DNA from: Nitrospirota bacterium
GTDB lineage: Bacteria > Nitrospirota > Thermodesulfovibrionia > Thermodesulfovibrionales > Dissulfurispiraceae
Assembly (NCBI GenBank): GCA_040754455.1
Contig: JBFMCP010000057.1
Span: 1-13,322, forward strand
Direction: 5' to 3'
DNA length: 13,322 nucleotides
Shown here: positions 380 to 12,935 of the stretch, one piece after another
Numbering within the stretch: the first letter of the stretch is position 1
Layout: every line of letters begins with the position of its first letter
Notes under the pieces: model-generated
Database searches by the model: none
What the model was told of the DNA's origin: nothing
The model's input: only the letters and a program-made list of their open reading frames with translations
Translations under genes and position numbers: made by a program

Positions 380-1363
<984 letters not shown>

Positions 1364-1366
1364 GCA

Positions 1367-2779
1367 GTGATAAAGGAAGGCATATTCAGAGAGTATGATA
1401 TCAGAGGGATCGTCGGCAAGGAGATTACCGCGGAAACCGCTGTTGTTCTCGGCAGGGCCTTCGGTGCTTTCGTTAAAAAGAGAAATCCGCTTGCAACGCG
1501 TGTAAGCATAGGGAGGGACGTGCGGCTCGGTTCCGAATCGCTTGCGCGGGGGCTCGCAGAGGGGATAACAGCAACAGGCCTTGATGTTATCGATCTCGGC
1601 ACCTGCCCTACGCCGCTGCAGTATTTCTCTCTCTTCCATCTGGACCTCGACGGCGGCATCATGGTGACCGGCAGCCACAATCCACCTGAATACAACGGCT
1701 TCAAAATAAGCATCGGGAAAGAGACGATTTACGGGCAGGATATACAGCAGCTGAAGCGTATCATACAGAATCAGGAGTGGTGTCTTTCGGAACAAAGCGG
1801 TTCCATTGAACAATATGACATTATACAAGACTATCGTGAGTATATGCTGAACGAGTTCTCTTATCTCGGCAGCCCGGCGTCCATGAAATTGAAAGTGGTC
1901 ATTGATGCAGGCAACGGCACCGCCGGCCTCGTGCTCCCTGAAATTCTTGAGCAGCTCGGATGCGAGGTGATTCCGATCTATTGCGAGCCTGACGGGACAT
2001 TTCCCCATCACCACCCCGATCCGACTGTCGTTGAAAACATTCAAGACCTTATTGCTACAACGCACACGCAGCATGCCGATATCGGCATAGGGTACGACGG
2101 TGATGCCGACCGGATTGGTGTCGTCGACCGTAACGGCACTATCATATGGGGTGATCAGCTGATGATCGTGCTGAGTCGTGAACTGCTCAAACGTACGCCC
2201 GGCGCAAAGATCATCGGCGATGTGAAGTGCTCGCAGGTACTCTTCGATGATATACGAAAGCACAAAGGCGTTCCCATCATGTGGAAGACCGGCCATTCTC
2301 TGGTGAAGAGCAAGATGCGGGAGGAGGGTGCGTTAATCGCCGGAGAGTTCAGTGGTCATATTTTTATCGGGGACCGGTATTTCGGGTTTGATGATGCACT
2401 CTACACGACCTTGCGGCTTGTCGAGATCATGAAGACAAGCGGGCAGGATATACAGTCCTTGCTGTCGGATGTGCCGAGGATGTACGGTACTCCCGAGATA
2501 CGCATTGACTGCACTGAGGAGCGGAAAAAAGAGATCGTCGAAAAAGTCGCAGCGCGGTTTATTGAATACCAAAAAAACGATGCAAGTCCCTACAGCATCA
2601 CGGGGGTTGTCACAATCGACGGCATACGAGTGATGTTCGACAAGGGGTGGGGACTGGTGAGGTCGAGCAATACCCAGCCCGTTGTGGTCATGAGAATAGA
2701 AGCTGAAGACCGGGAACACCTCGAAGGGTACCGTGCGCTTTTGGAAAGAGAGTTCAAAGCTCTGCTGGAGGATCGATGA
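1367..2779 (+). CDS. Phosphomannomutase/phosphoglucomutase (AlgC/ManB-like)
   Basis: IFREYDIRG N-terminus, TGSHNP phosphoserine loop, DGDADR metal loop, GEFSGH sugar loop, GWGLVRSSNTQP. GTG start 3 nt after the galE stop. Confidence 0.95.
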   Translation: MIKEGIFREYDIRGIVGKEITAETAVVLGRAFGAFVKKRNPLATRVSIGRDVRLGSESLARGLAEGITATGLDVIDLGTCPTPLQYFSLFHLDLDGGIMVTGSHNPPEYNGFKISIGKETIYGQDIQQLKRIIQNQEWCLSEQSGSIEQYDIIQDYREYMLNEFSYLGSPASMKLKVVIDAGNGTAGLVLPEILEQLGCEVIPIYCEPDGTFPHHHPDPTVVENIQDLIATTHTQHADIGIGYDGDADRIGVVDRNGTIIWGDQLMIVLSRELLKRTPGAKIIGDVKCSQVLFDDIRKHKGVPIMWKTGHSLVKSKMREEGALIAGEFSGHIFIGDRYFGFDDALYTTLRLVEIMKTSGQDIQSLLSDVPRMYGTPEIRIDCTEERKKEIVEKVAARFIEYQKNDASPYSITGVVTIDGIRVMFDKGWGLVRSSNTQPVVVMRIEAEDREHLEGYRALLEREFKALLEDR

Positions 2780-4197
2780 AGGTATTCATTCTCGCGGGAG
2801 GGAGCGGGACACGACTCTGGCCGTTGTCGCGGAAGCGTTATCCCAAGCAGTTTCTGAGACTCAACGGTGATGCGTCGCTTCTGCAGCAGACCGTCAGGAG
2901 GGTGTCTGGTGCAGTGCGGCCGGAGGATATTGTCGTTATTACGAATAGTGACTATAAATTCCATGTCGCCTCCGACATGGGAACACTCTTTCCCGCACAC
3001 CCCGGGCACAATGTCCACATCCTGCTCGAACCTGCGGGCAGAAATACCGCACCGGCGATAGCATTTGGCATAAGGTTCTGCAAGGAAAGGCTCGGCAGCA
3101 AGGACGGTGAGGTGATCTTTATCTCCCCTTCCGATCATATCATAAAGCCTGCGGAACGCTTCCCTGAATACATGAAACGGGCAGAGGAGGTCGCACAAGA
3201 AGGATATATTGTAACCTTCGGCGTCAAGCCCTACCGCCCCGAAACGGGATACGGGTATATAAAGGCAGGTAAGGGCAGAGGCAAAGGTACAGGTACAGAA
3301 GTCTATAGCGTAGAGGAGTTCACTGAAAAGCCGGAACTCGAGACCGCACAACGATATATCAACGAGGGGGGCTATTTCTGGAATTCGGGTATGTTCGCCT
3401 TCCGTATCGATACCATGCTCGAAGAGCTGGGTGCCTATGCCCCGCAGATCAGAGAAATGTGCAACAAGCCCTTTGACGAGATGGCAGCATCTTTTACGCA
3501 GATGCCCGATATATCCATTGATTATGCCGTTGCTGAGAAATCGAAGCGGGTCGTGACCCTGCCGCTCGACTGCTACTGGAACGATATCGGCTCATGGGAT
3601 GCGCTCTACGAGGTGCTTCCAAAAGATCCCGATGGCAACATCGCTCTCGGCAATATTCTTACCGTTGACACCAAAGACAGCCTGATCATCGGCAACAAGC
3701 GACTCATCTCGACAATCGGCCTCGAGGGCCATCTTATCATCGAGACGGATGATGCCATCCTGATCGCAAAGAAAGGCGAAGCGCAAAAGGTCAAGGATGT
3801 GGTGAAGGTGTTGCAAGAGACCGACAGAAAGGAAGCTGAGGAGCATGTGACCACCTATCGTCCCTGGGGGAGCTATACGATTCTGGAAGAGGGGCCGCGG
3901 TATAAAATAAAAAGGATCGTCGTAAACCCCGGAGCAAAGTTGAGTCTCCAGATGCACTACCACCGCTCTGAGCACTGGGTGGTGGTAACGGGCGCAGCGA
4001 AGGTCACCATCGGTGATAAGGAAATATTCGTCCATGAAAACGAGTCCGCCTATGTGCCCAAATCAACGCTCCACCGGCTCGAGAACCCCGGCAGAGTCCC
4101 GCTCGAAATCATCGAGGTGCAGAACGGCGAGTACGTCGGTGAGGACGATATACAGCGTATAGAAGATGTGTATGACCGAAAAAGCGACGGAGCGTAA
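2776..4197 (+). CDS. manC: Bifunctional mannose-1-phosphate guanylyltransferase / mannose-6-phosphate isomerase
   Basis: [59 protein letters not shown]-terminal cupin RPWGSY...[12 protein letters not shown]...[17 protein letters not shown] overlap with the upstream gene. Confidence 0.96.
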
Positions 4198-4199
4198 GT

Positions 4200-5327
4200 A
4201 TGAGAAAAAACAGTGACAAAAGGGTCAGCCGACGTTCAAAGGCGAAGACCGCCCTTATCACCGGCATTACCGGACAGGACGGCGCCTATCTCGCGGAATT
4301 TCTGCTCGACAAGGGGTATACGGTCCACGGCATCAAGAGGCGGGCATCGCTCTTCAATACCGACAGAATAGACCATCTGTACCACGATCCTCACGAGAAG
4401 GGACTGAATTTCACCCTCCACTACGGCGACCTGACCGACGCGACCAACCTGATCCGTATTATCCAGGAGGTCCAGCCGGATGAGATTTATAATCTCGCCG
4501 CCCAGTCGCATGTCCAGGTGTCCTTCGAGACGCCTGAATACACCGCCAATGCTGATGCGCTCGGCACGCTGCGGCTGCTGGAGGCAATACGGATTCTCAA
4601 CCTCGAGAACACAACGCGATTCTATCAAGCATCTACCTCGGAACTCTACGGCAAGGTGCAGGAGACGCCACAGAGTGAAACAACACCGTTTTATCCCCGC
4701 AGTCCCTACGCAGCGGCAAAGTTGTACTCCTATTGGATTACAATAAATTACCGCGAGGCTTATAACTTTTTTGCCTGCAACGGCATTCTCTTTAACCACG
4801 AATCTCCCATGAGGGGGGAAACCTTCGTCACCCGAAAAATTACACGCGCAGTAGCGCGCATCGCACTGGGTCTCCAGGAAAAACTCTATTTGGGCAATCT
4901 CAATGCGAAGAGGGACTGGGGGCATGCTGCCGATTACGTGGAGGCCATGTGGCTCATGCTGCAGCAGGATACCCCTGATGACTACGTTATCGCTACCGGC
5001 GAGACCCATTCGGTGCGGGAATTCGTCGAGCTCGCCTTCAGTAAGGTCGGAATCAAAATAGCATGGAAGGGAAAGGGCGTCAACGAAAAAGGCATTAACA
5101 CTTCAACAGGGAAGATCATCGTCGAGATCGACCCCCGCTATTTCAGGCCGACGGAGGTTGACCTCCTTCGGGGAGATCCTTCCAAGGCAAAGAGGCAGCT
5201 CGGCTGGGAGCCGAAGGTCACGTTCAAGGAACTGGTCGACATGATGGTGGCGTCGGACCTCGAAGAGGCCAGGAGGGATATGTTCTGCAGGCAAGAGGGA
5301 TTCAAGTCGTTCAATTACAATGAATAG
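4200..5327 (+). CDS. gmd: GDP-mannose 4,6-dehydratase
   Basis: [73 protein letters not shown] at 4189-4192. Confidence 0.97.
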
Positions 5328-6270
5328 GGACTCTAAGGTTTATGTAGCCGGCCATCGCGGACTCGTCGGCGCCGCCATCGTGAGAAAGCTCCGGGAAAAG
5401 CGGTTCACGCATCTCATCACGCGGACGAGCGGCGAGCTTGATCTGAGAAGGCAGGCCCGAGTCGAGCGGTTTTTCGAAGACGAGCGGCCGGAATATGTAT
5501 TCCTGGCTGCTGCCAGGGTCGGCGGCATTCTCGCCAACAGCACCTTTCCCGCCGATTTCATCTACGACAATCTCGCCATCCAGACCAATATCATCCATGC
5601 TGCGTACCGTTGCGGCGTGAAAAAACTGCTCTTTCTTGGCAGCTCCTGTATCTATCCCAAATTCGCCCCCCAGCCGATGAAAGAGGAGTATCTCCTGACC
5701 GGTGAGCTTGAACCCACCAACGAGCCGTACGCCATCGCGAAGATCGCCGGCATAAAATTATGTCAGGCCTTCAACCGACAGTACGGAACGAACTTCATAT
5801 CCGTTATGCCCACCAACCTCTATGGCCCCCACGACAATTTCGATCTCGAAACCGCGCATGTCCTTCCGGCGCTCATAAGAAAATTCCATGAGGCGAAGTG
5901 CCGGGCGGCTCAGGGCAGGAAAGAGCCCGTTGTGCTCTGGGGCACCGGCGCTCCCTATCGAGAGTTCCTCCATGTCGACGATCTCGCCGACGCCTGTGTG
6001 TTCCTTATGGAGCGCTACGACGGAGAAGATATCATCAACATCGGCGTCGGCAAGGACATCACCATCAGAGAGCTCTCTGAACTGGTAAGCAACGTGGTGG
6101 GCTATGGGGGGGAAGTGATCTGGGACTCCTCCAAACCCGACGGGACGCCCCGAAAGCTTCTGGACCTATCGCGACTGCAATCCCTTGGATGGGTGCCCCG
6201 AATAAGCCTGGAGGAAGGGATACGAAGCACCTACGAGTGGTATCTGAAAATGTATGAGAGCACGGCATAA
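5320..6270 (+). CDS. fcl: GDP-L-fucose synthase (GDP-4-keto-6-deoxymannose epimerase/reductase)
   Basis: [68 protein letters not shown]; 8-nt overlap with gmd. Confidence 0.96.
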
Positions 6271-6391: not shown

Positions 6392-9346
6392 ATGGCATTG
6401 GACTACGTCGAAGAAAAGCTTACGGTTTCGGAAAGGGCTTCCCGGCTCTCCCAAGGCGCGCCATTCGTTGTCGGAGGCGTTGTCCTTGTCGGGCTCTACC
6501 TGAGCAGTCTTCATCATTTCCTTCTTTTTCATACCATTGCGGAGCTGTTCAGTATTGCGGTCGCTTTCGCCATCCTCATGCTTACCTGGAACTCGCGGCG
6601 GTATTTTGACAACAGCACGCTTCAATTTATCGGCATCGCCTATTTCTTTGTCGGCGTTTTAGATTTGTTGCACACCCTTGCCTATAAGGGCATGAATGTA
6701 TTCCCCCAGTATACGGCGAACCTCCCTACCCAGCTCTGGATCGCGGGCAGGTATGTCCAGAGTATTTCGCTTCTGATCGCACCGCTCTTTATCACCAGAA
6801 AGTTTCGTTACCATATTGTATTCACTGTGTATTCGTTGATTTCGGGTCTTTTGCTCTTTACTATCTTCTCAGGATACTTTCCTGTCTGCTTTATCGAGGG
6901 TTCCGGGTTGACTCCCTTCAAAAAGACCAGCGAATTCATCATATCGGCGATCGTAATAGGTGCAATAGGCCACCTCCTGTACCGGCGCGACTACTTTGCA
7001 GCCAATGTGCTTCGTCTTCTCGTCTGGTCAATGGCGATCACCGTAGGTTCTGAAATCATGTTCACGTTTTACATAAGCGTCTACGGCATCTCGAACCTGG
7101 TCGGCCACTATTTCAAAATCATAGCGTACTATCTCATCTACAAGGCGCTTGTGGTCAACGGTCTGGTGATGCCCTATGATCTGCTTTTCAGGGATCTGAA
7201 GCGGAGCGAGGAAAAACTGAAGCAGTACCGCGATCACCTCGAGGAAAAGGTGCAGGAGCGGACTACCGAGCTGAACGAAATCAATGAGGAGCTTGCCCGT
7301 GAGATCAATGAACGCATCAAGACGGAGCAGGCGCTGCGGGAGAGCAAGCAGTTTGCTAACCAGATTATCGACCTGTCTCCCAATATCCTCCATCTCTTCG
7401 ATCTCGTCGAACAGCGCACGGTCTATATCAATTCCCAGGTGCAGGAGATCCTCGGCTACCGCAGGGAGGATGTACTGCAACAGGGACCGGATTTTTTCAA
7501 AAAGACGCTGCATCCAGACGATATGCACATTTTCGAGAACCTCCGCGAACGGTTTGCCGGGGTCGCGGATAATGAGATCATCGAAACCGAATTCCGCATG
7601 AGAAAGGCGAACGGTGAATGGTGCTGGCTCTACCGCAGGGATGCGGTCTTTACACGGGATGCCTCTGGCGTCCCCAAGATCATCATCGGCAATGCGCAGG
7701 ACATTACGGAGCGGAAAAAAGCCGAGCAGCGTATCACGGCGCATCATGAGTTGCTCAGGCTTTTTACCAAGACCGTTTCACGAAAAGAGTACCTCGATGC
7801 CGTCGTGCAGTTGATCCGCAACTGGAGCGGCTGCCGCTGTGTGGGCATACGGATCGTCAGCGACAACGGCACGATCCCTTATGAATCGTATGTCGGATAC
7901 AGCCGGGAGTTCTGGGAATCGGAGAACCACCTTTCGCTGAAGCATGATCACTGCATATGCACGCGGGTGATGTCCGGAAGATGCGAGCCCCATGATCAAC
8001 GGACCATGACGCCCTTCGGGTCTTTTCAGCACGATAATATCACTGCTTTTGTCGGAGGGCTTGCGGAGCAGGAACGGACTCGCTATCGTGGTGTCTGCCT
8101 TATGCACGGTTTTTCCTCGCTGGCGATCATTCCCATTTACTATGGAGAGAGTATCATCGCAACCATCCATATGGCCGATGAGCGTGAGGGAAGGGTATCG
8201 CGGGAATTCGTTGAGTTTTTCGAAGATGTCACTCCCCTCATCGGCGAGGCGATCCATAAGCTCGACGCTGCTGCGGAGCGCAAACGCCTTGTTGCGGCAA
8301 TCGAGTCGGCTGCCGAGGCCATCGTGATCACTGATACGAAAGGCATGATCGAGTATGTCAATCCGGCATTCGGGCGCATTACCGGTTTCACCAGGGAAGA
8401 GGTGCTCGGCCGGGACCTCCACTTCATCGACAGCGGAAAGCATGGCGAGGAATTCTACAGCGAGATGCGCGCGACGCTCGGGAGCGGCAAGACCTGGAGC
8501 GGCCAACTCGTCAATAAAAAGAAAGATGGCTCTCTGTACCACGAAGAGTGTACCGTCTCCCCCATCAAGGGCCCTTCGGGAGAGACGGTCAACTATGTCT
8601 ATGTCAAGCGTGACGTGACCGAGAGGCTCAGGCTCGAATCCATTGCCGAGGCGGTCACTACCATGAACAATATAGGGTACATCTTTGCAGGGATCAGGCA
8701 CGAGATGGGCAATCCCATCAATTCCGTAAAAATGGCGTTAAGTGTCCTTAAATCCAACCTCGGCAGCTATGCCCGCTCGACCATCAGTGAATACATCGAC
8801 CGCTCGCTCGGTGAGCTGTCGCGGGTCGAGTACCTTCTCAAGAGTCTGAAGAGCTTTAATCTTTTCGAGAGCCCCGAGCTCCAGCTGGTGCAGCTGCGCC
8901 GTTTCATGGAGCAGATCCTTTCGCTGGTGCGTGATGATTTTTCAAAACGGGGAATTACCGTCTCACTCCTCATTGACCCTGAGGTCAAGACCTGTTATGC
9001 CGACCCGCGCGCACTGCAGCAGGTGCTGATCAACGTCCTCACCAATGCCTGCGATGCCTGTGAGGGAAGGGAGTGCCCCGCCATCGACATAACAATATCG
9101 AAAACATCAGGTATAATACTCATACGCGTAGCGGATACGGGATGGGGCATGACGGAACGGCAGCAGGAGGAACTCTTCAAGCCCTTCCGCACGACAAAGA
9201 CTCACGGCACCGGCCTCGGCCTCGTTCTGGCAAAAAGGATGCTGGCGACTATGAGCGGGACAATACGGGTCACGAGCCGCCATGGTGAAGGTACGGTCGT
9301 CGAAATTTCTCTACCGGAGCAGATGAGTGGGAGCGAGCAATCATAA
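6392..9346 (+). CDS. Membrane sensor histidine kinase: MASE3 - coiled coil - PAS - Cys-rich GAF-like - PAS - DHp - HATPase_c
   Basis: Multi-TM N-terminus with MASE3-type motifs (LLFHTIAELFS, DLLHTLAYKGM, TQLWIAGRY). Two PAS/PAC units ending DITERK and DVTER. H-box IRHEMGNP (H770), N-box NVLTNA, G1 DTGWG, F-box LFKPF, G2 GTGLGL. No clear SD at the start. Confidence 0.93.
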   Translation: MALDYVEEKLTVSERASRLSQGAPFVVGGVVLVGLYLSSLHHFLLFHTIAELFSIAVAFAILMLTWNSRRYFDNSTLQFIGIAYFFVGVLDLLHTLAYKGMNVFPQYTANLPTQLWIAGRYVQSISLLIAPLFITRKFRYHIVFTVYSLISGLLLFTIFSGYFPVCFIEGSGLTPFKKTSEFIISAIVIGAIGHLLYRRDYFAANVLRLLVWSMAITVGSEIMFTFYISVYGISNLVGHYFKIIAYYLIYKALVVNGLVMPYDLLFRDLKRSEEKLKQYRDHLEEKVQERTTELNEINEELAREINERIKTEQALRESKQFANQIIDLSPNILHLFDLVEQRTVYINSQVQEILGYRREDVLQQGPDFFKKTLHPDDMHIFENLRERFAGVADNEIIETEFRMRKANGEWCWLYRRDAVFTRDASGVPKIIIGNAQDITERKKAEQRITAHHELLRLFTKTVSRKEYLDAVVQLIRNWSGCRCVGIRIVSDNGTIPYESYVGYSREFWESENHLSLKHDHCICTRVMSGRCEPHDQRTMTPFGSFQHDNITAFVGGLAEQERTRYRGVCLMHGFSSLAIIPIYYGESIIATIHMADEREGRVSREFVEFFEDVTPLIGEAIHKLDAAAERKRLVAAIESAAEAIVITDTKGMIEYVNPAFGRITGFTREEVLGRDLHFIDSGKHGEEFYSEMRATLGSGKTWSGQLVNKKKDGSLYHEECTVSPIKGPSGETVNYVYVKRDVTERLRLESIAEAVTTMNNIGYIFAGIRHEMGNPINSVKMALSVLKSNLGSYARSTISEYIDRSLGELSRVEYLLKSLKSFNLFESPELQLVQLRRFMEQILSLVRDDFSKRGITVSLLIDPEVKTCYADPRALQQVLINVLTNACDACEGRECPAIDITISKTSGIILIRVADTGWGMTERQQEELFKPFRTTKTHGTGLGLVLAKRMLATMSGTIRVTSRHGEGTVVEISLPEQMSGSEQS

Positions 9347-10682
9347 AAAGACGCTGCTTATTATCGATGACGACCGGCTGTTGTGCGATGCGATACGGGA
9401 TCATTTCAGCCGCAACGGGCTGAATGTACTGGTTGCCAACACCGGCGGCGAAGGGCTCGATCTCTGCGGACAGAACAACATCGACCTTGTGCTCCTCGAC
9501 CAGAATCTCCCCGATGCCGAAGGCCACACGCTCTGTCCCGCCATACTCAAGCACAACGACCAGACGAAGATCATCTTCATTACGGCACATCCCAGCTTCG
9601 ACAACGCCGTCAATGCGATCAGGGTCGGCGCGCACAACTACCTCTCCAAGCCGTTTGAGCTCGAAGAATTGTCGCTCGCTATCGAGCAGGCGTTGAAGAC
9701 ACTGGATCTCGAGAAGGTGGTCCAGGTCGAGGATTACAAGACCAGACAGGCGAGCGAAGGCACGGTCATTGTCGGCAGCAGTCCTGAGTTCAGCGAGATC
9801 CTGCGGCTGGTCGACCTCGCCGCTTCCGCAGAAGCGCCGGTGCTCATTACCGGCGAGACCGGTACCGGCAAGAATATGGTGGCCAAGACGATCCATTACC
9901 GGAGCGCGGCACGTAAGGACGCCTTCATCAGCATCAATTGCGCCGCTTTGCCGGAAAACCTCATCGAGGCCGAGCTGTTCGGGTACGAGAAGGGCGCCTT
10001 TACCGGCGCTACGGCTTCAAAGCGCGGCATCTTCGAAATGGCGGAGGGCGGGACGCTCTTTCTGGACGAGATCGGCGAAATGCCCCTGCATCTGCAATCA
10101 AAGCTCCTCAGCGTACTCGAAGACAAGACCATAAAGCGTCTCGGCGGAGATTCCATGCGGCCGGTCAATGTCCGTATCATCGCCGCCACCAGTGCCGATC
10201 TCGAGAACGGGATGGGTAAGACGTTCCGGAGCGACCTCTACTACCGTCTCAGTGTTATCCGCATTCATATCCCGCCGCTCAGACTGCACCGGCAGGATAT
10301 CCCGGAATTGTGCGACTACCTCCTGCGGAAGATCGCCTGCAGCCGCGAGGTCGCACTCGCCGACGGCGAGTTGAAAAAACTTACGGACTACGACTGGCCC
10401 GGCAATATACGCGAGCTGAGAAATATCCTCGAACGGGCGGTTATCCTCCAGAAGGGGACTATCATCAGACCCTCCGAGCTGCTCGTGAAAAACGTCGCGA
10501 GCCGCCCTAGTCACAATGCAGTAAATGCCGGCGGTGAATTGATGACCCTGGCTGAAATGGAAAAGGAGCATATCCAGCGCGCCCTTGATCAGCTCTCCGG
10601 TAATTATACCCGGGCCGCCAAAGTGCTCGGCATCTCGCTCTCGACACTCAAGAGAAAGATCAAGGAATACGGCCTGAAATAG
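9327..10682 (+). CDS. sigma54-dependent response regulator (REC - AAA+ - Fis HTH; NtrC/AtoC/ZraR family)
   Basis: REC (IIDDD, LLDQNLP, FIT, KPF); Walker A GETGTGK; intact GAFTGA; Walker B LFLDEIGE; FRSDLYYRL; WPGNIREL; HTH GNYTRAAKVLGISLSTLKRK. GTG start with GGAG at 9316-9319; overlaps the kinase by 20 nt. Confidence 0.96.
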   Translation: MGASNHKKTLLIIDDDRLLCDAIRDHFSRNGLNVLVANTGGEGLDLCGQNNIDLVLLDQNLPDAEGHTLCPAILKHNDQTKIIFITAHPSFDNAVNAIRVGAHNYLSKPFELEELSLAIEQALKTLDLEKVVQVEDYKTRQASEGTVIVGSSPEFSEILRLVDLAASAEAPVLITGETGTGKNMVAKTIHYRSAARKDAFISINCAALPENLIEAELFGYEKGAFTGATASKRGIFEMAEGGTLFLDEIGEMPLHLQSKLLSVLEDKTIKRLGGDSMRPVNVRIIAATSADLENGMGKTFRSDLYYRLSVIRIHIPPLRLHRQDIPELCDYLLRKIACSREVALADGELKKLTDYDWPGNIRELRNILERAVILQKGTIIRPSELLVKNVASRPSHNAVNAGGELMTLAEMEKEHIQRALDQLSGNYTRAAKVLGISLSTLKRKIKEYGLK

Positions 10683-10780
10683 GTCATTTTAAGTGAGTCA
10701 TAATAATCCGGCTGACGTTCCCGGTTACTCTCCTTATCTCTAACCCTATGAAATGTTTATAATCTGCTGCCGTCATTTTT

Positions 10781-10797
10781 CTGGCATTACTCTTGCT
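10781..10797 (+). promoter_or_regulatory. sigma54 (-24/-12) promoter P1
   Basis: CTGGCATTACTCTTGCT; GG 10783-84 and GC 10795-96 are exactly 10 nt apart; intergenic, 41 nt before the next ATG. Confidence 0.85.
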
Positions 10798-10838
10798 AGT
10801 ATCTATAATGAGCAAATCTATGCCGTTATGAGGAGTCT

Positions 10839-11645
10839 ATGGGGGCCGGAGACAGCGGGGAGGAGTGGTGGATTGCAGCAGGAAACGAGTTCGGAGCCGG
10901 TGAGTCCGGCAGGGTCTCGCAACCGACGGCGAGCGGCCGGGAGCGGGAAGGAGGACGCCGCCACGCTGATACGCGTGCCGGAGATTGCCTGGAGGCCCTC
11001 TCCAGGGAGATACGACACGGGCTCGGGAATCCCATCAATTCGGTCAAGACCGTCCTGAATGTGCTCATCGCGAATCTGGAGCACTACGATGCCTCAGCCA
11101 TAAGAGAGTATCTCGAGCGTTCGCAGCAGGAACTCGGCAAGGCAGAGCGATTCCTGAAGGACCTGAGGGAACTTAACCGCTTCGAGCATCTCGATCTCAG
11201 GGGGATACCAGCGACATCGTTCATTGAGAAGCTGCTCGCTCCTCTGCGCCATGAAGTATCAAAGAAAGGCATTACGCTCACCACTTCCATTGGGCCGGGG
11301 CTGGGGGCATTCCATGCCGATCAGCAGGCACTGCGGCAGGTGCTCATGACGGTCCTCGCCAATGCCGTCGATGCATGTCGGGAAAGCAGATGCCCCGAAA
11401 TATCCCTTGCCGTCTCCCGTACACCGGAGGGAATGGCGCTGGTGCGGATAACGGACAACGGTAGAAGGACGAACGAGCAGCAGGACGTGCCCTTCACATC
11501 GCTCCCTGCCTCAGGCCCACAGAGCGGAGGGCTCGGGCTCCTCATCGCCCGCAGACTCTTGCAGAAAATGAAGGGAAGCATCGAGGTAAAGAACTTTGAA
11601 CGAGAGGGGACGACGGTCGATATCCTCATCCCCTCACAGCAGTAG
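10839..11645 (+). CDS. Sensorless histidine-kinase-like protein (DHp + degenerate HATPase_c); probable pseudokinase, paralog of 6392..9346
   Basis: SD GAGGAG at 10830-10835. H-box IRHGLGNPINSVK (H60). About 88/208 (~42%) identical to the upstream kinase core by hand alignment. ATP-binding boxes are altered, but the frame is intact. Confidence 0.85.
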   Translation: MGAGDSGEEWWIAAGNEFGAGESGRVSQPTASGREREGGRRHADTRAGDCLEALSREIRHGLGNPINSVKTVLNVLIANLEHYDASAIREYLERSQQELGKAERFLKDLRELNRFEHLDLRGIPATSFIEKLLAPLRHEVSKKGITLTTSIGPGLGAFHADQQALRQVLMTVLANAVDACRESRCPEISLAVSRTPEGMALVRITDNGRRTNEQQDVPFTSLPASGPQSGGLGLLIARRLLQKMKGSIEVKNFEREGTTVDILIPSQQ

Positions 11646-11795
11646 CGCTTTCCGGAACGCGCCCCGAAATCTCCCGCCTAAAATGAACAGTGCGATGCAA
11701 AATAGGCCGCTCGTTTTTTTCATCGAAAGGGCCGAAGTGCTGTGGCATTTACTGGTAACCTGCTGAAACTGCGAGCGACAACTCCGATGGAACAT

Positions 11796-11812
11796 CTGGC
11801 ACTGCTCTTGCT
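11796..11812 (+). promoter_or_regulatory. sigma54 (-24/-12) promoter P2
   Basis: CTGGCACTGCTCTTGCT; GG 11798-99, N10, GC 11810-11; 15/17 identical to P1. Confidence 0.85.
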
Positions 11813-11824
11813 TATTGGATGATC

Positions 11825-12265
11825 ATGAAAAACGTACTGATCGTCGATGATGAACGTCTGATCCGCACCTCGCTTGCCGAGTGGCTCCGGCTCTACGATA
11901 AAACGTGCAACGTGCTGACTGCAGGCAACGGAAGGGAGGCGGTGGATATTCTTGAGACGGCACTGGTGGACATAGTGATCACCGATCTCGATATGCCGGT
12001 TATGGACGGGCTCGAGCTCCTCGCCTACCGGCAGGAGCATTGCTCCGATGTGCCAGCGATTGTCATTACCTCCTTTGTCGACAGCGATATCCGCGAGCGG
12101 CTCTTCAGGCTCGGCGCCTGCACCTATATGCCCAAACCCTTCGGCTTCAAGGAACTGCACACGAAGATACTGCAGCTGCTTGAGGCCCGGATTCACCCAT
12201 ATGATATATGCAGGGGATCCCTTGGATACGCGAACGCTATGATTGAGGAGGATATGATATGTTGA
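11825..12265 (+). CDS. Stand-alone response regulator receiver protein (CheY-like) with ~25 aa C-terminal tail
   Basis: MKNVLIVDDE...VITDLDMPVMDGLELL...VITS...KPF; acidic pair, phospho-Asp (D54), Thr and Lys all present. Start is ATG 11825 or ATG 11819. Confidence 0.92.
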   Translation: MKNVLIVDDERLIRTSLAEWLRLYDKTCNVLTAGNGREAVDILETALVDIVITDLDMPVMDGLELLAYRQEHCSDVPAIVITSFVDSDIRERLFRLGACTYMPKPFGFKELHTKILQLLEARIHPYDICRGSLGYANAMIEEDMIC

Positions 12266-12597
12266 CACTGACAGAGATGATAGAAGAAAAAAATTCATTG
12301 GCATACTTTGAGCGGTCACTTTCAGGCAGTGCAGGAAGCGTCGTCGGGCAGATCCCCGATAGATCAGGGCACGTCGCACCCCAAGCGTCGAAAGAGCTTC
12401 GCAGGCGCCTCGCCGAGGCGATACTGCTTCAGTCGATAGCAGACCTCTGGGATCCTTCGCTCAAAGAGGAGAGCATCGGTTTCTTCACGGACGGCCGTTT
12501 CGCAGCCTGTGCCGAGGCAGCCGGAATGAGCTATCCGCAACAGCTTAAGCTGCTCGGCATCGTTGCCGGAGCGGGTGCCGGGAGATTTATGAAATAA
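12259..12597 (+). CDS. Hypothetical protein (112 aa), translationally coupled to the receiver gene
   Basis: Strong SD GAGGAGG 12245-12251, 7 nt before the ATG; 7-nt overlap with the upstream gene; helical-looking core RRRLAEAILLQSIADLWD...FF...F..CAEAAGM. Confidence 0.75.
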   Translation: MLTLTEMIEEKNSLAYFERSLSGSAGSVVGQIPDRSGHVAPQASKELRRRLAEAILLQSIADLWDPSLKEESIGFFTDGRFAACAEAAGMSYPQQLKLLGIVAGAGAGRFMK

Positions 12598-12935
12598 GAG
12601 TCGCTCATCTTTTCCTCCGATAAAGCCTCCTTCTGACCAGTGGGCATTGGTGTTCTCCCGCGCCGATGCCTCTTTCTTTTGTTCGCAGTGGTATACATGG
12701 TTGCCCATCGGTTTTCATAGTGCGTGCGCAGCAGTGGAATTCGTCGTTTCACTTGTTTCGAACGGAAAAGATGCGGAGATGGTGAATATCCCCCTCTCGT
12801 TAAAAGAACGTGCCTGTAAAAAGTGGCACGCCGATATGACGAATTGTGCAGAATGAACCATTCATAATGATCTGAATGCCGCCCATAAGCAACGCCTCGA
12901 AAAAGTAAGTTCCTGTCTTATTAAAAAGAATTGAT

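Follow-up and report, generated by a model that had tools for sequence, protein, structure and literature searches.

P0001, a sensor-less histidine kinase homologue with degenerate ATP-site boxes, as a candidate kinase-dead module in a four-gene signalling locus of a Nitrospirota bacterium

The signalling locus and the P0001 gene

The DNA analysed here, called the window below, comprises positions 1 to 13,322 of contig JBFMCP010000057.1 (assembly GCA_040754455.1) from a Nitrospirota bacterium of the Dissulfurispiraceae. Its main subject is the gene P0001, which codes for a 268-aa protein consisting of a disordered tail, a dimerisation and histidine phosphotransfer (DHp) hairpin and a catalytic and ATP-binding (CA) domain, and which carries substitutions that point to the loss of autokinase activity. 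The gene lies between a pair of genes for a complete sensor kinase (P0002) and an NtrC/AtoC-type regulator (P0003) on one side and the gene of a stand-alone receiver on the other. The order of kinase, NtrC-class regulator, transmitter-only protein and stand-alone receiver, with all genes on the + strand, matches the RedE-type four-component layout. The genes of the locus and the parts of P0001 are as follows.

6392..9346, + strand: sensor histidine kinase P0002, full-length, 984 aa (MASE3 membrane domain, PAS, GAF-like, PAS, HisKA, HATPase_c)
9327..10682, + strand: NtrC/AtoC-type response regulator P0003 (REC, sigma-54 AAA+ domain with GAFTGA, Fis-type helix-turn-helix)
10830..10835, + strand: Shine-Dalgarno sequence GAGGAG, read from the sequence, 3 nt before ATG 10839
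10839..11645, + strand: gene of the predicted pseudokinase P0001, 268 aa
10839..10961, + strand: residues 1-41 of P0001, a Gly/Arg/Glu/Ala-rich tail, predicted unstructured, no domain
10962..11177, + strand: DHp hairpin of P0001, helix 1 (42-78) with Arg59-His60-Gly61-Leu-Gly-Asn64-Pro and helix 2 (85-113)
11199..11639, + strand: CA (HATPase_c) domain of P0001, with degenerate nucleotide boxes
11819..12265, + strand: stand-alone receiver, 148 aa with a 30-aa tail (Pfam Response_reg, 5.5e-26)

The P0001 frame opens at ATG 10839, the only in-frame ATG, GTG or TTG ahead of the codon for the phospho-accepting histidine (residue 60, 11016-11018), and its one close ortholog, P0005, begins at the same place. 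Pfam detected solely HisKA (54-117) and HATPase_c (161-267) in P0001. The original prediction, made from the sequence of the window, had noted the absence of a sensor domain, and this was borne out both by the Pfam result and by the structural model, in which residues 1-41 were unstructured. The HATPase_c domain scored 56.9 bits (cut-off 26.4) compared with 84.5 bits in P0002. The HisKA score of 24.3 bits was under the Pfam cut-off of 26.9, and the intact neighbour P0002 gave an equal 24.3 bits. P0002 also showed a MASE3 match at 4e-84, and every catalytic box was intact in it, with 0 deviations at those of the near-invariant core sites (31 in all, defined below) that are altered in P0001.

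The prediction had further placed P0001 at about 42% identity to the DHp-CA core of P0002, with a stretch of 14 identical nucleotides. BLASTP aligned residues 58-268 of P0001 with residues 768-978 of P0002 and gave the same figure (90/212 identical, 42%, E 8e-51). The nucleotide alignment recovered the 14-nt identity AATCCCATCAATTC at 8711-8724 and 11028-11041 (columns 19-32 of the alignment starting from 8693 and 11010). Each of the substitutions it had listed was present in the sequence. The H-box reads IRH-G-LGNPINSVK in P0001 and IRH-E-MGNPINSVK in P0002, and the N box reads QVLMTVLANA and QVLINVLTNA, respectively, with Thr in place of the first Asn. G1 is DNGRR instead of DTGWG, with an additional in-frame deletion of one residue; the F-box and lid are FTSLPASG instead of FKPFRTTK, and G2 is SGGLGL instead of GTGLGL. 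The phospho-accepting His and the Asn at H+4, which had been reported as kept, were found as His60 and Asn64.

Homology of P0001 to its family begins only at Ile58. The approximately 22-residue segment that precedes the His in the family, RLESIAEAVNTMNNIGYxFSG, is well conserved (Phe55 in 145/152 and Gly52 in 141/152 members) and is replaced by unrelated sequence in P0001. The PAS-plus-linker regions of six relatives were compared by tblastn with positions 10500-11100, and no relic of the pre-His segment, of a PAS domain or of a linker was found in any frame; the sole match was IRH..GNPINSV, and all others had E>0.04. The composition of this part is also atypical. Codons 1-57 (10839-11009) had a very high and flat GC content at the three codon positions (GC1/2/3 = 0.72/0.65/0.72), which sets them apart from all other genes of the window; the core (0.62/0.42/0.69) showed the same pattern as the other genes.

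Conservation, predicted fold and ancestry of P0001

The relatives of P0001 were collected with a HMMER search against 1.84 billion representatives, which returned 75,309 relatives at E<=1e-3; the best 150 were used. Family counts refer to 152 members, namely 149 of these matches together with P0002, P0006 and P0007. A further 21 weaker matches (P0008-P0028) were aligned and excluded from the counts. Positions conserved in at least 95% of the members were regarded as near-invariant, and this held for 31 of the 211 core positions.

P0001 and P0005 deviated from the family at the same 10 of these 31 positions: E61G, R163Q, N171T, G210R, P221S, F222L, T224A, K226G, G229S and S252N. In the family as a whole, 98 of the 152 members showed no deviation, 41 showed one, six showed two and three showed three; the highest counts were four (two members), six (one member) and seven (one member). 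The family residue was Glu at H+1 in 151 members, Asn171 in 149, Gly210 in 152, Pro221 in 152, Phe222 in 151 and Lys226 in 150. The states that P0001 has at these positions (Gly at H+1, Thr at 171, Arg at 210, and those at 221, 222 and 226) were found in 0/152 relatives. P0001 thus lacks the acidic residue at H+1, where it has Gly61, and it likewise lacks complete N, G1, F and G2 boxes.

The remaining 21 near-invariant positions were retained, including Arg59, His60, Gly63, Asn64, Pro65 and Phe219. His60 aligned with a His in 151/152 relatives, and Asn64 (H+4) corresponded to Asn in 150/152. Within the DHp hairpin, seven of the eight near-invariant positions were kept and the H+1 Glu was the sole loss; Asn67, which at 94.7% conservation falls just under the cut-off, was also kept. 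In the CA domain, the Mg-binding Asn175 of the N box, Asp206 and Gly208 of G1 and G231-L-G-L were retained. These counts (10/31 sites overall, a single one in the DHp) agree quantitatively with the predicted selective loss of autokinase residues, and we infer from them that P0001 has lost autokinase activity.

P0001 had also been described as having the same helix-1 surface as the neighbouring kinase. The motif GNPINSVK is indeed present in both proteins. In the 152 members, Val69 was conserved at 20%, Ile66 at 52%, Ser68 at 75%, Lys70 at 82% and the other four residues at 95-99%, so that six of the eight positions are at least 75% conserved. The motif therefore reads largely as a signature of the whole subfamily and not as a special likeness between P0001 and P0002. 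At H+11 and H+12, which we take to be partner-specificity determinants of histidine kinases, the family is variable, and P0002 has Met-Ala while P0001 has Thr-Val. Because of this difference, P0001 is more likely to have partners that differ from those of P0002, or that overlap with them in part, than to act on the same regulators. The proposal that it serves the same regulator(s) as the kinase hence found no support.

The AlphaFold2 model of P0001 (43-row alignment) had a mean predicted local distance difference test (pLDDT) score of 79.5. The two DHp helices (42-78 and 85-113) were modelled with pLDDT of 90-96, and the CA domain (121-267) was confident save for the lid. The lid and F-box (218-229) scored below 50, as did the unstructured residues 1-41. 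In a control model of the P0002 kinase core, built with the same sequence set, the lid blocks scored 92 and 86. Foldseek gave HK853 chains as the best structural matches (E 1e-16), with ZraS, KinB, DivL and RetS lower in the list; by sequence, the nearest solved chains were those of ZraS (9jfj, 3e-13) and KinB. A complex prediction of two P0001 chains (43-268) with the stand-alone receiver (1-125), run without controls, gave scores of 0.00 and 0.01 (mark 0.32) and weighs neither for nor against such a complex.

P0005 is the single close ortholog of P0001 (93% identical, 268 aa). Identity did not exceed 43% for any of the remaining 149 among the best 150 matches, and a word-indexed search agreed with HMMER that P0005 is the only close relative. 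A scan of genome contigs gave three distant kinases at no more than 31% identity and no P0001 ortholog. The original prediction had proposed to examine whether the box substitutions are conserved in orthologs, and P0005, with its equal length and intact frame, carries all 10 changes. The 12 core differences between P0001 and P0005 avoided conserved sites, as the 64 sites with a family conservation of 80% or more contained none of them (hypergeometric P=0.011). The tail (1-57) differed at 8/57 positions compared with 12/211 in the core (Fisher p=0.045); six of these eight differences lie in residues 34-52, and residues 3-33 differ at 1/31. Compared with the kinase core, P0001 showed dS (synonymous substitutions per site) of about 1.7 and a ratio of nonsynonymous to synonymous rates (dN/dS) of about 0.30, and two indels, both multiples of three. 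The open frame survived in 24 of 200,000 shuffles of the gene. P0001 is best read as a gene that is not decaying, because the frame is intact in both orthologs and the core differences avoid family-conserved sites. The earlier argument against simple decay, which rested on the frame, the Shine-Dalgarno sequence and the promoter, stands as well, as GAGGAG and sigma-70-like and sigma-54-like sites are present.

P0001 was about equally distant from all 152 relatives (36-43% identity, best 43%, median 36%), whereas the neighbour P0002 has relatives at 63%. On this sequence evidence, the divergence of P0001 from its kinase relatives appears to be old, and the protein appears to be derived from the AtoS/ZraS-like kinase subfamily to which P0002 belongs. 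Its description as a paralog of the neighbouring kinase therefore holds at the subfamily level. A specific sister relation is compatible with the data and no more: a clade of P0001 and P0005 with P0002 and P0039 was not rejected by the approximately unbiased (AU) test (p=0.58), and the constrained tree was 3.9 log-likelihood units better. An origin from a P0002-like kinase is likewise compatible and unproven.

In a FastTree phylogeny, P0001 and P0005 had grouped with P0143, P0029 and P0160 as a clade of degenerate kinases (supports 0.67-0.89). This candidate clade was abandoned after a site-heterogeneous IQ-TREE run on 45 of 154 rows, which dissolved it into a polytomy and flagged long branches. 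The stem of P0001 and P0005 was long, at 1.9 substitutions per site where the median end branch measured 0.87, and long-branch attraction is the probable reason for the FastTree grouping. P0143 is a sensor-less protein of 232 aa with H-Q at the H-box that deviates at 7/31 near-invariant positions. Six of these seven positions are also changed in P0001 (P=0.0017), whatever the tree, and at five of the six the residue of P0143 differs from that of P0001. The overlap looks like a repeated relaxation of the same ATP-site positions and not like a new shared motif. P0029 has PAS domains and a Gln in place of the His, and P0160 is a sensor-less protein of 247 aa with HE intact. A search for a wider family with P0143 as the query gave only P0143 itself and one 30% match.

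Promoter-like elements and neighbouring features

The kinase and regulator genes overlap. The GTG start of P0003 lies within the end of the kinase gene, with an overlap of 20 nt (9327-9346), which suggests translational coupling of P0003 to the kinase gene. The P0001 gene, compared with this overlapping pair, is flanked by gaps of 156 and 173 nt with a promoter-like element in each. The elements in and around these gaps, together with the features that follow the receiver gene, are listed below.

10782..10797, + strand: sigma-54-type element TGGCATTACTCTTGCT, one mismatch, with the -24 GG at 10783-4 and the -12 GC at 10795-6
11645..11662, no strand assigned: near-perfect 18-nt palindrome GCGCTTTCCGGAACGCGC at the P0001 stop codon, with 12-nt arms, 92% complementary
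11797..11812, + strand: exact sigma-54 consensus TGGCACTGCTCTTGCT, 0 mismatches, ending 7 nt short of ATG 11819 and 13 nt short of ATG 11825
12259..12597, + strand: 112-aa open reading frame (ORF) overlapping the receiver stop codon
12642..12671, + strand: terminator-like hairpin of 12 pairs with a T-rich tail, which closes the unit

The window was scanned with TGGCAC-N5-TTGCW, which we take to be the sigma-54 consensus. Exactly two sites with at most one mismatch were found, against 0.34 expected, and 9 of 200 shuffles reached two. Both lie on the coding strand, one in each of the two intergenic gaps flanking P0001, and they are identical to each other at 16/18 nt. The first sits about 42 nt upstream of the P0001 ATG. 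The elements also adjoin the gene for P0003, an activator that bears GAFTGA. On these grounds, the P0001 module is probably induced via sigma-54 by the adjacent regulator P0003. The palindrome GCGCTTTCCGGAACGCGC, whose centre lies about 145 nt before the second element, has no T-run after it; it might speculatively be an activator-binding site. No intrinsic terminator with a T-run was found between P0001 and the receiver gene, and the hairpin at 12642-12671, 3' of the 112-aa ORF, was the sole good terminator-like hairpin noted.

The P0003 assignment rests on Pfam matches to Sigma54_activat (1e-66), Response_reg (4e-26) and HTH_8, with GAFTGA read in the sequence. Its best NCBIfam model was AtoC, under the cut-off of that model, and no NCBIfam model reached its cut-off for any of the five proteins. 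In the stand-alone receiver, the set of Asp-Asp, Asp56, Thr/Ser and Lys is entirely intact, and the protein is 31% identical to the receiver of P0003. The 112-aa ORF is probably co-transcribed and could be the output of the stand-alone receiver. It had zero matches in Pfam or NCBIfam, and an Atlas search returned only unnamed clusters at scores within reach of shuffled proteins. The named relatives of the kinase P0002 came from Nitrospirota/Dissulfurispiraceae and Desulfobacterota metagenome bins. Two further features lie upstream of the kinase gene.

211-285: tRNA-Gly (anticodon CCC)
383-6270: nucleotide-sugar cluster of five genes, directly upstream of the P0002 gene

By Pfam, the order in the cluster is epimerase, phosphomannomutase, mannose-1-phosphate guanylyltransferase/isomerase (ManC), GDP-mannose 4,6-dehydratase and second epimerase. 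Rfam detected the tRNA only.

Function of P0001 and comparison with known systems

The interpretation we prefer, with a rough probability of 45%, is that P0001 is a kinase-dead module that works on receivers within a four-component circuit similar to RedCDEF, with phosphatase activity as its most likely function. P0001 would be a sensor-less transmitter (disordered tail, DHp and CA) that is incapable of self-phosphorylation, because Gly61 stands in place of the catalytic acid and the lid, the F-box and both G boxes are degraded. His60, the phosphatase-linked H+4 Asn, the receiver-docking helices and the overall fold are kept, and P0001 would dephosphorylate, constitutively and independently of any signal, a phosphorylated receiver encoded beside it. 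The stand-alone receiver at 11819-12265 is the likelier target, because P0001 and the main kinase have different residues at the specificity positions; P0003, the NtrC-type regulator, is the alternative target. As the P0001 and receiver genes each have their own sigma-54-type promoter-like element, phosphorylated P0003 may induce both through these elements. The four components would then form a circuit whose reset or feedback arm is inducible. The substitution pattern appears unusually easy to interpret, and the transcriptional wiring is plausible.

Published mutants provide a biochemical precedent for the proposed phosphatase function. In CrdS, the substitutions E372A/D/G/Q at H+1 were without kinase activity, and E372A had full phosphatase activity (PMC3510030, Willett and Kirby). 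The same pattern was obtained in HK853, HK1190 and HK4262, and the Asn/Thr at H+4 was needed for phosphatase activity and dispensable for kinase activity (PMC3510030).

Several observations weigh against this interpretation or against its transcriptional part. The G1 Asp, the Mg-binding Asn and GLGL are retained, so that P0001 may still bind some nucleotide. The retention of His60 fits phosphotransfer at least as well as a pure phosphatase. In CrdS, the His was nearly dispensable for phosphatase activity (PMC3510030). The first promoter-like element has one mismatch and allows a second reading, as a sigma-70 promoter (CTGGCA-17-TATAAT at 10781-10809, a 10/12 match). Transcription from the second element is predicted to start at about 11823, at the ATGs 11819 and 11825, which would give an almost leaderless receiver mRNA; a receiver translated from 11825 would start MKNVLIVDDE. 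A common upstream activator site ahead of both sigma-54 elements was not found, and nothing within the window indicates rpoN in the genome. Finally, a single ortholog was present among the 1.84 billion representatives.

The alternative that survives best, in itself somewhat unlikely and not exclusive of the phosphatase interpretation, is that P0001 is a kinase-fold histidine phosphotransferase similar to ChpT, PhyK/LovK or RedE. His60 would take a phosphoryl group from one receiver, for example that of P0003, and hand it to the stand-alone receiver, so that phosphate would be drained or rerouted through a sink or a relay. His60 and its surroundings are strictly retained despite the loss of the autokinase residues, and two different receivers are encoded, one on either side of P0001. 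Precedents exist as well: the His of RedE accepts phosphate from RedD (PMC2755868), PhyK and LovK are phosphotransferases that obtain phosphate from a single-domain regulator, LovK-LovR together form a sink for phosphate (PMC5964349), and ChpT is a kinase-like phosphotransferase that forms dimers (PMC3433190). Sequence cannot separate transfer from hydrolysis, however, and the retained H+4 Asn is a hallmark of phosphatase chemistry. The ChpT/Spo0B type has a CA-like domain that does not bind ATP and a His that shuttles phosphate between receivers; the boxes of P0001 are degenerate yet partly retained, and its locus has two receivers.

A more specific proposal, which we consider decidedly unlikely in its full form, is that P0001, the receiver and the 112-aa ORF constitute a sigma-54-induced reset cassette, an inducible and self-limiting phosphate drain that derives from a duplicated kinase core. 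Phosphorylated P0003 would switch on P0001, and phosphoryl groups would then be drawn back to His60 and on to the sink receiver; the partly conserved disordered tail may be a docking or degradation signal. If true, this would be a natural case of a two-component transcriptional output that encodes its own reverse-phosphotransfer pathway.

There is a slim chance that P0001 is a decoy, which either forms inhibitory heterodimers with the DHp of the neighbouring kinase or titrates a regulator without any chemistry. RetS, which pairs with GacS, is the model for inhibition by heterodimers. P0001 belongs to the same subfamily as its neighbour, a clade joining both was not rejected, and if the promoter interpretation is right the protein would be made only on induction. 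The identity to the kinase core is only 42%, however, and the conserved coiled-coil segment before the His is missing. Paralogous kinases usually evolve away from heterodimerising, and a pure decoy would have no need to keep His60, Asn64 and the Mg-binding Asn so strictly.

The odds are just as poor that P0001 is still an active kinase, one that is constitutively soluble and whose ATP site is unusual. Asp206, Gly208, Asn175 and GLGL are retained, and HATPase_c is recognised at 56.9 bits over the cut-off of 26.4. Against this, the change from Glu to Gly at H+1 abolished the kinase activity of CrdS (PMC3510030), seven further near-invariant residues of the nucleotide boxes are changed to states found in 0/152 relatives, and the lid was modelled with low confidence, unlike that of the kinase control.

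A functionless gene remnant nearing loss is highly improbable: the narrow distribution (one ortholog at 93%, then none above 43% among the best 150 of 75,309), the long stem (1.9 against 0.87 substitutions per site) and the atypical composition of the tail would fit it, but the 268-codon frame is open in two lineages at dS of about 1.7 from the nearest relatives with indels in frame, the ortholog differences avoid conserved sites, neither the hydrophobic core nor the DHp signature has been lost, and a ribosome-binding site and promoter-like elements are present.

Among the closest known systems is RedCDEF of Myxococcus xanthus, which combines a kinase of the NtrB type and a receiver protein of the NtrC class with RedE, a transmitter-only protein of 242 aa, and a stand-alone receiver (PMC2755868). 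RedE showed no autophosphorylation in vitro, received phosphate from RedD and dephosphorylated RedF (PMC2755868). Similarly to P0001 (268 aa), it is a transmitter-only protein with a conserved His and no sensor (PMC2755868). In RedE, conservation is poor in HisKA and good in HATPase_c. In P0001, H+1 is the one exception in an otherwise intact HisKA signature, and the ATP boxes are degenerate. RedD is a dual receiver that lacks an output domain, unlike P0003, which is a full sigma-54 activator. Sigma-54-type promoter-like elements precede the predicted pseudokinase and receiver genes of the P0001 locus, and the sections of the Red paper considered here note none (PMC2755868). The likeness of P0001 to RedE is one of architecture and gene set. 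If the sigma-54 wiring is true, the locus would be a compact RedCDEF-like circuit with a transcriptionally induced feedback arm in an uncultured lineage.

In the Alphaproteobacteria, ChpT, PhyK/LovK and PhyP share with P0001 an architecture of DHp plus a CA-like domain without autokinase use, and they act between receivers (PMC3433190, PMC5964349). PhyP has a degenerate CA domain and is a proposed phosphatase (PMC5964349). These proteins lack a sigma-54 context, and large clades have conserved them, in contrast to P0001 with its one known ortholog. They also belong to other subfamilies (HWE/HisKA_2 or ChpT). DivL and PsmA (PMC4211667, PMC12963549) are, similarly to P0001, kinase homologs that were repurposed without kinase activity. 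P0001 lacks the features of the DivL type, as its His60 is kept and it has no PAS domain. In DivL, a Tyr replaces the His and the PAS sensors are kept.

Kinase-like pseudoenzymes in two-component signalling are thus already established by RedE, ChpT, PhyK/PhyP, DivL and PsmA, and no prior report of this particular arrangement was found in the open-access literature. By its sequence, P0001 appears to be an independent, lineage-restricted pseudokinase that arose in the AtoS/ZraS-like subfamily. Its wider significance is limited, as it is an established kind of pseudoenzyme and is known from two near-identical sequences only.

The substitutions of P0001 have a close counterpart in engineered mutants that are kinase-deficient and phosphatase-competent (K-/P+), such as CrdS E372A/G and HK853 E261A, in which H+1 is substituted, including Glu to Gly, and the Asn/Thr at H+4 is kept (PMC3510030). 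Such laboratory point mutants keep their ATP sites and sensors, whereas P0001 is natural and has lost the lid, the boxes and the whole sensor. P0001 can thus be regarded as a natural counterpart of the K-/P+ mutants, with the H+1 change from Glu to Gly and the loss of lid and sensor in one protein. Because these losses are combined with a kept His, H+4 Asn and docking helices, it lends itself to a clean test of what a transmitter can still do once ATP chemistry is gone.

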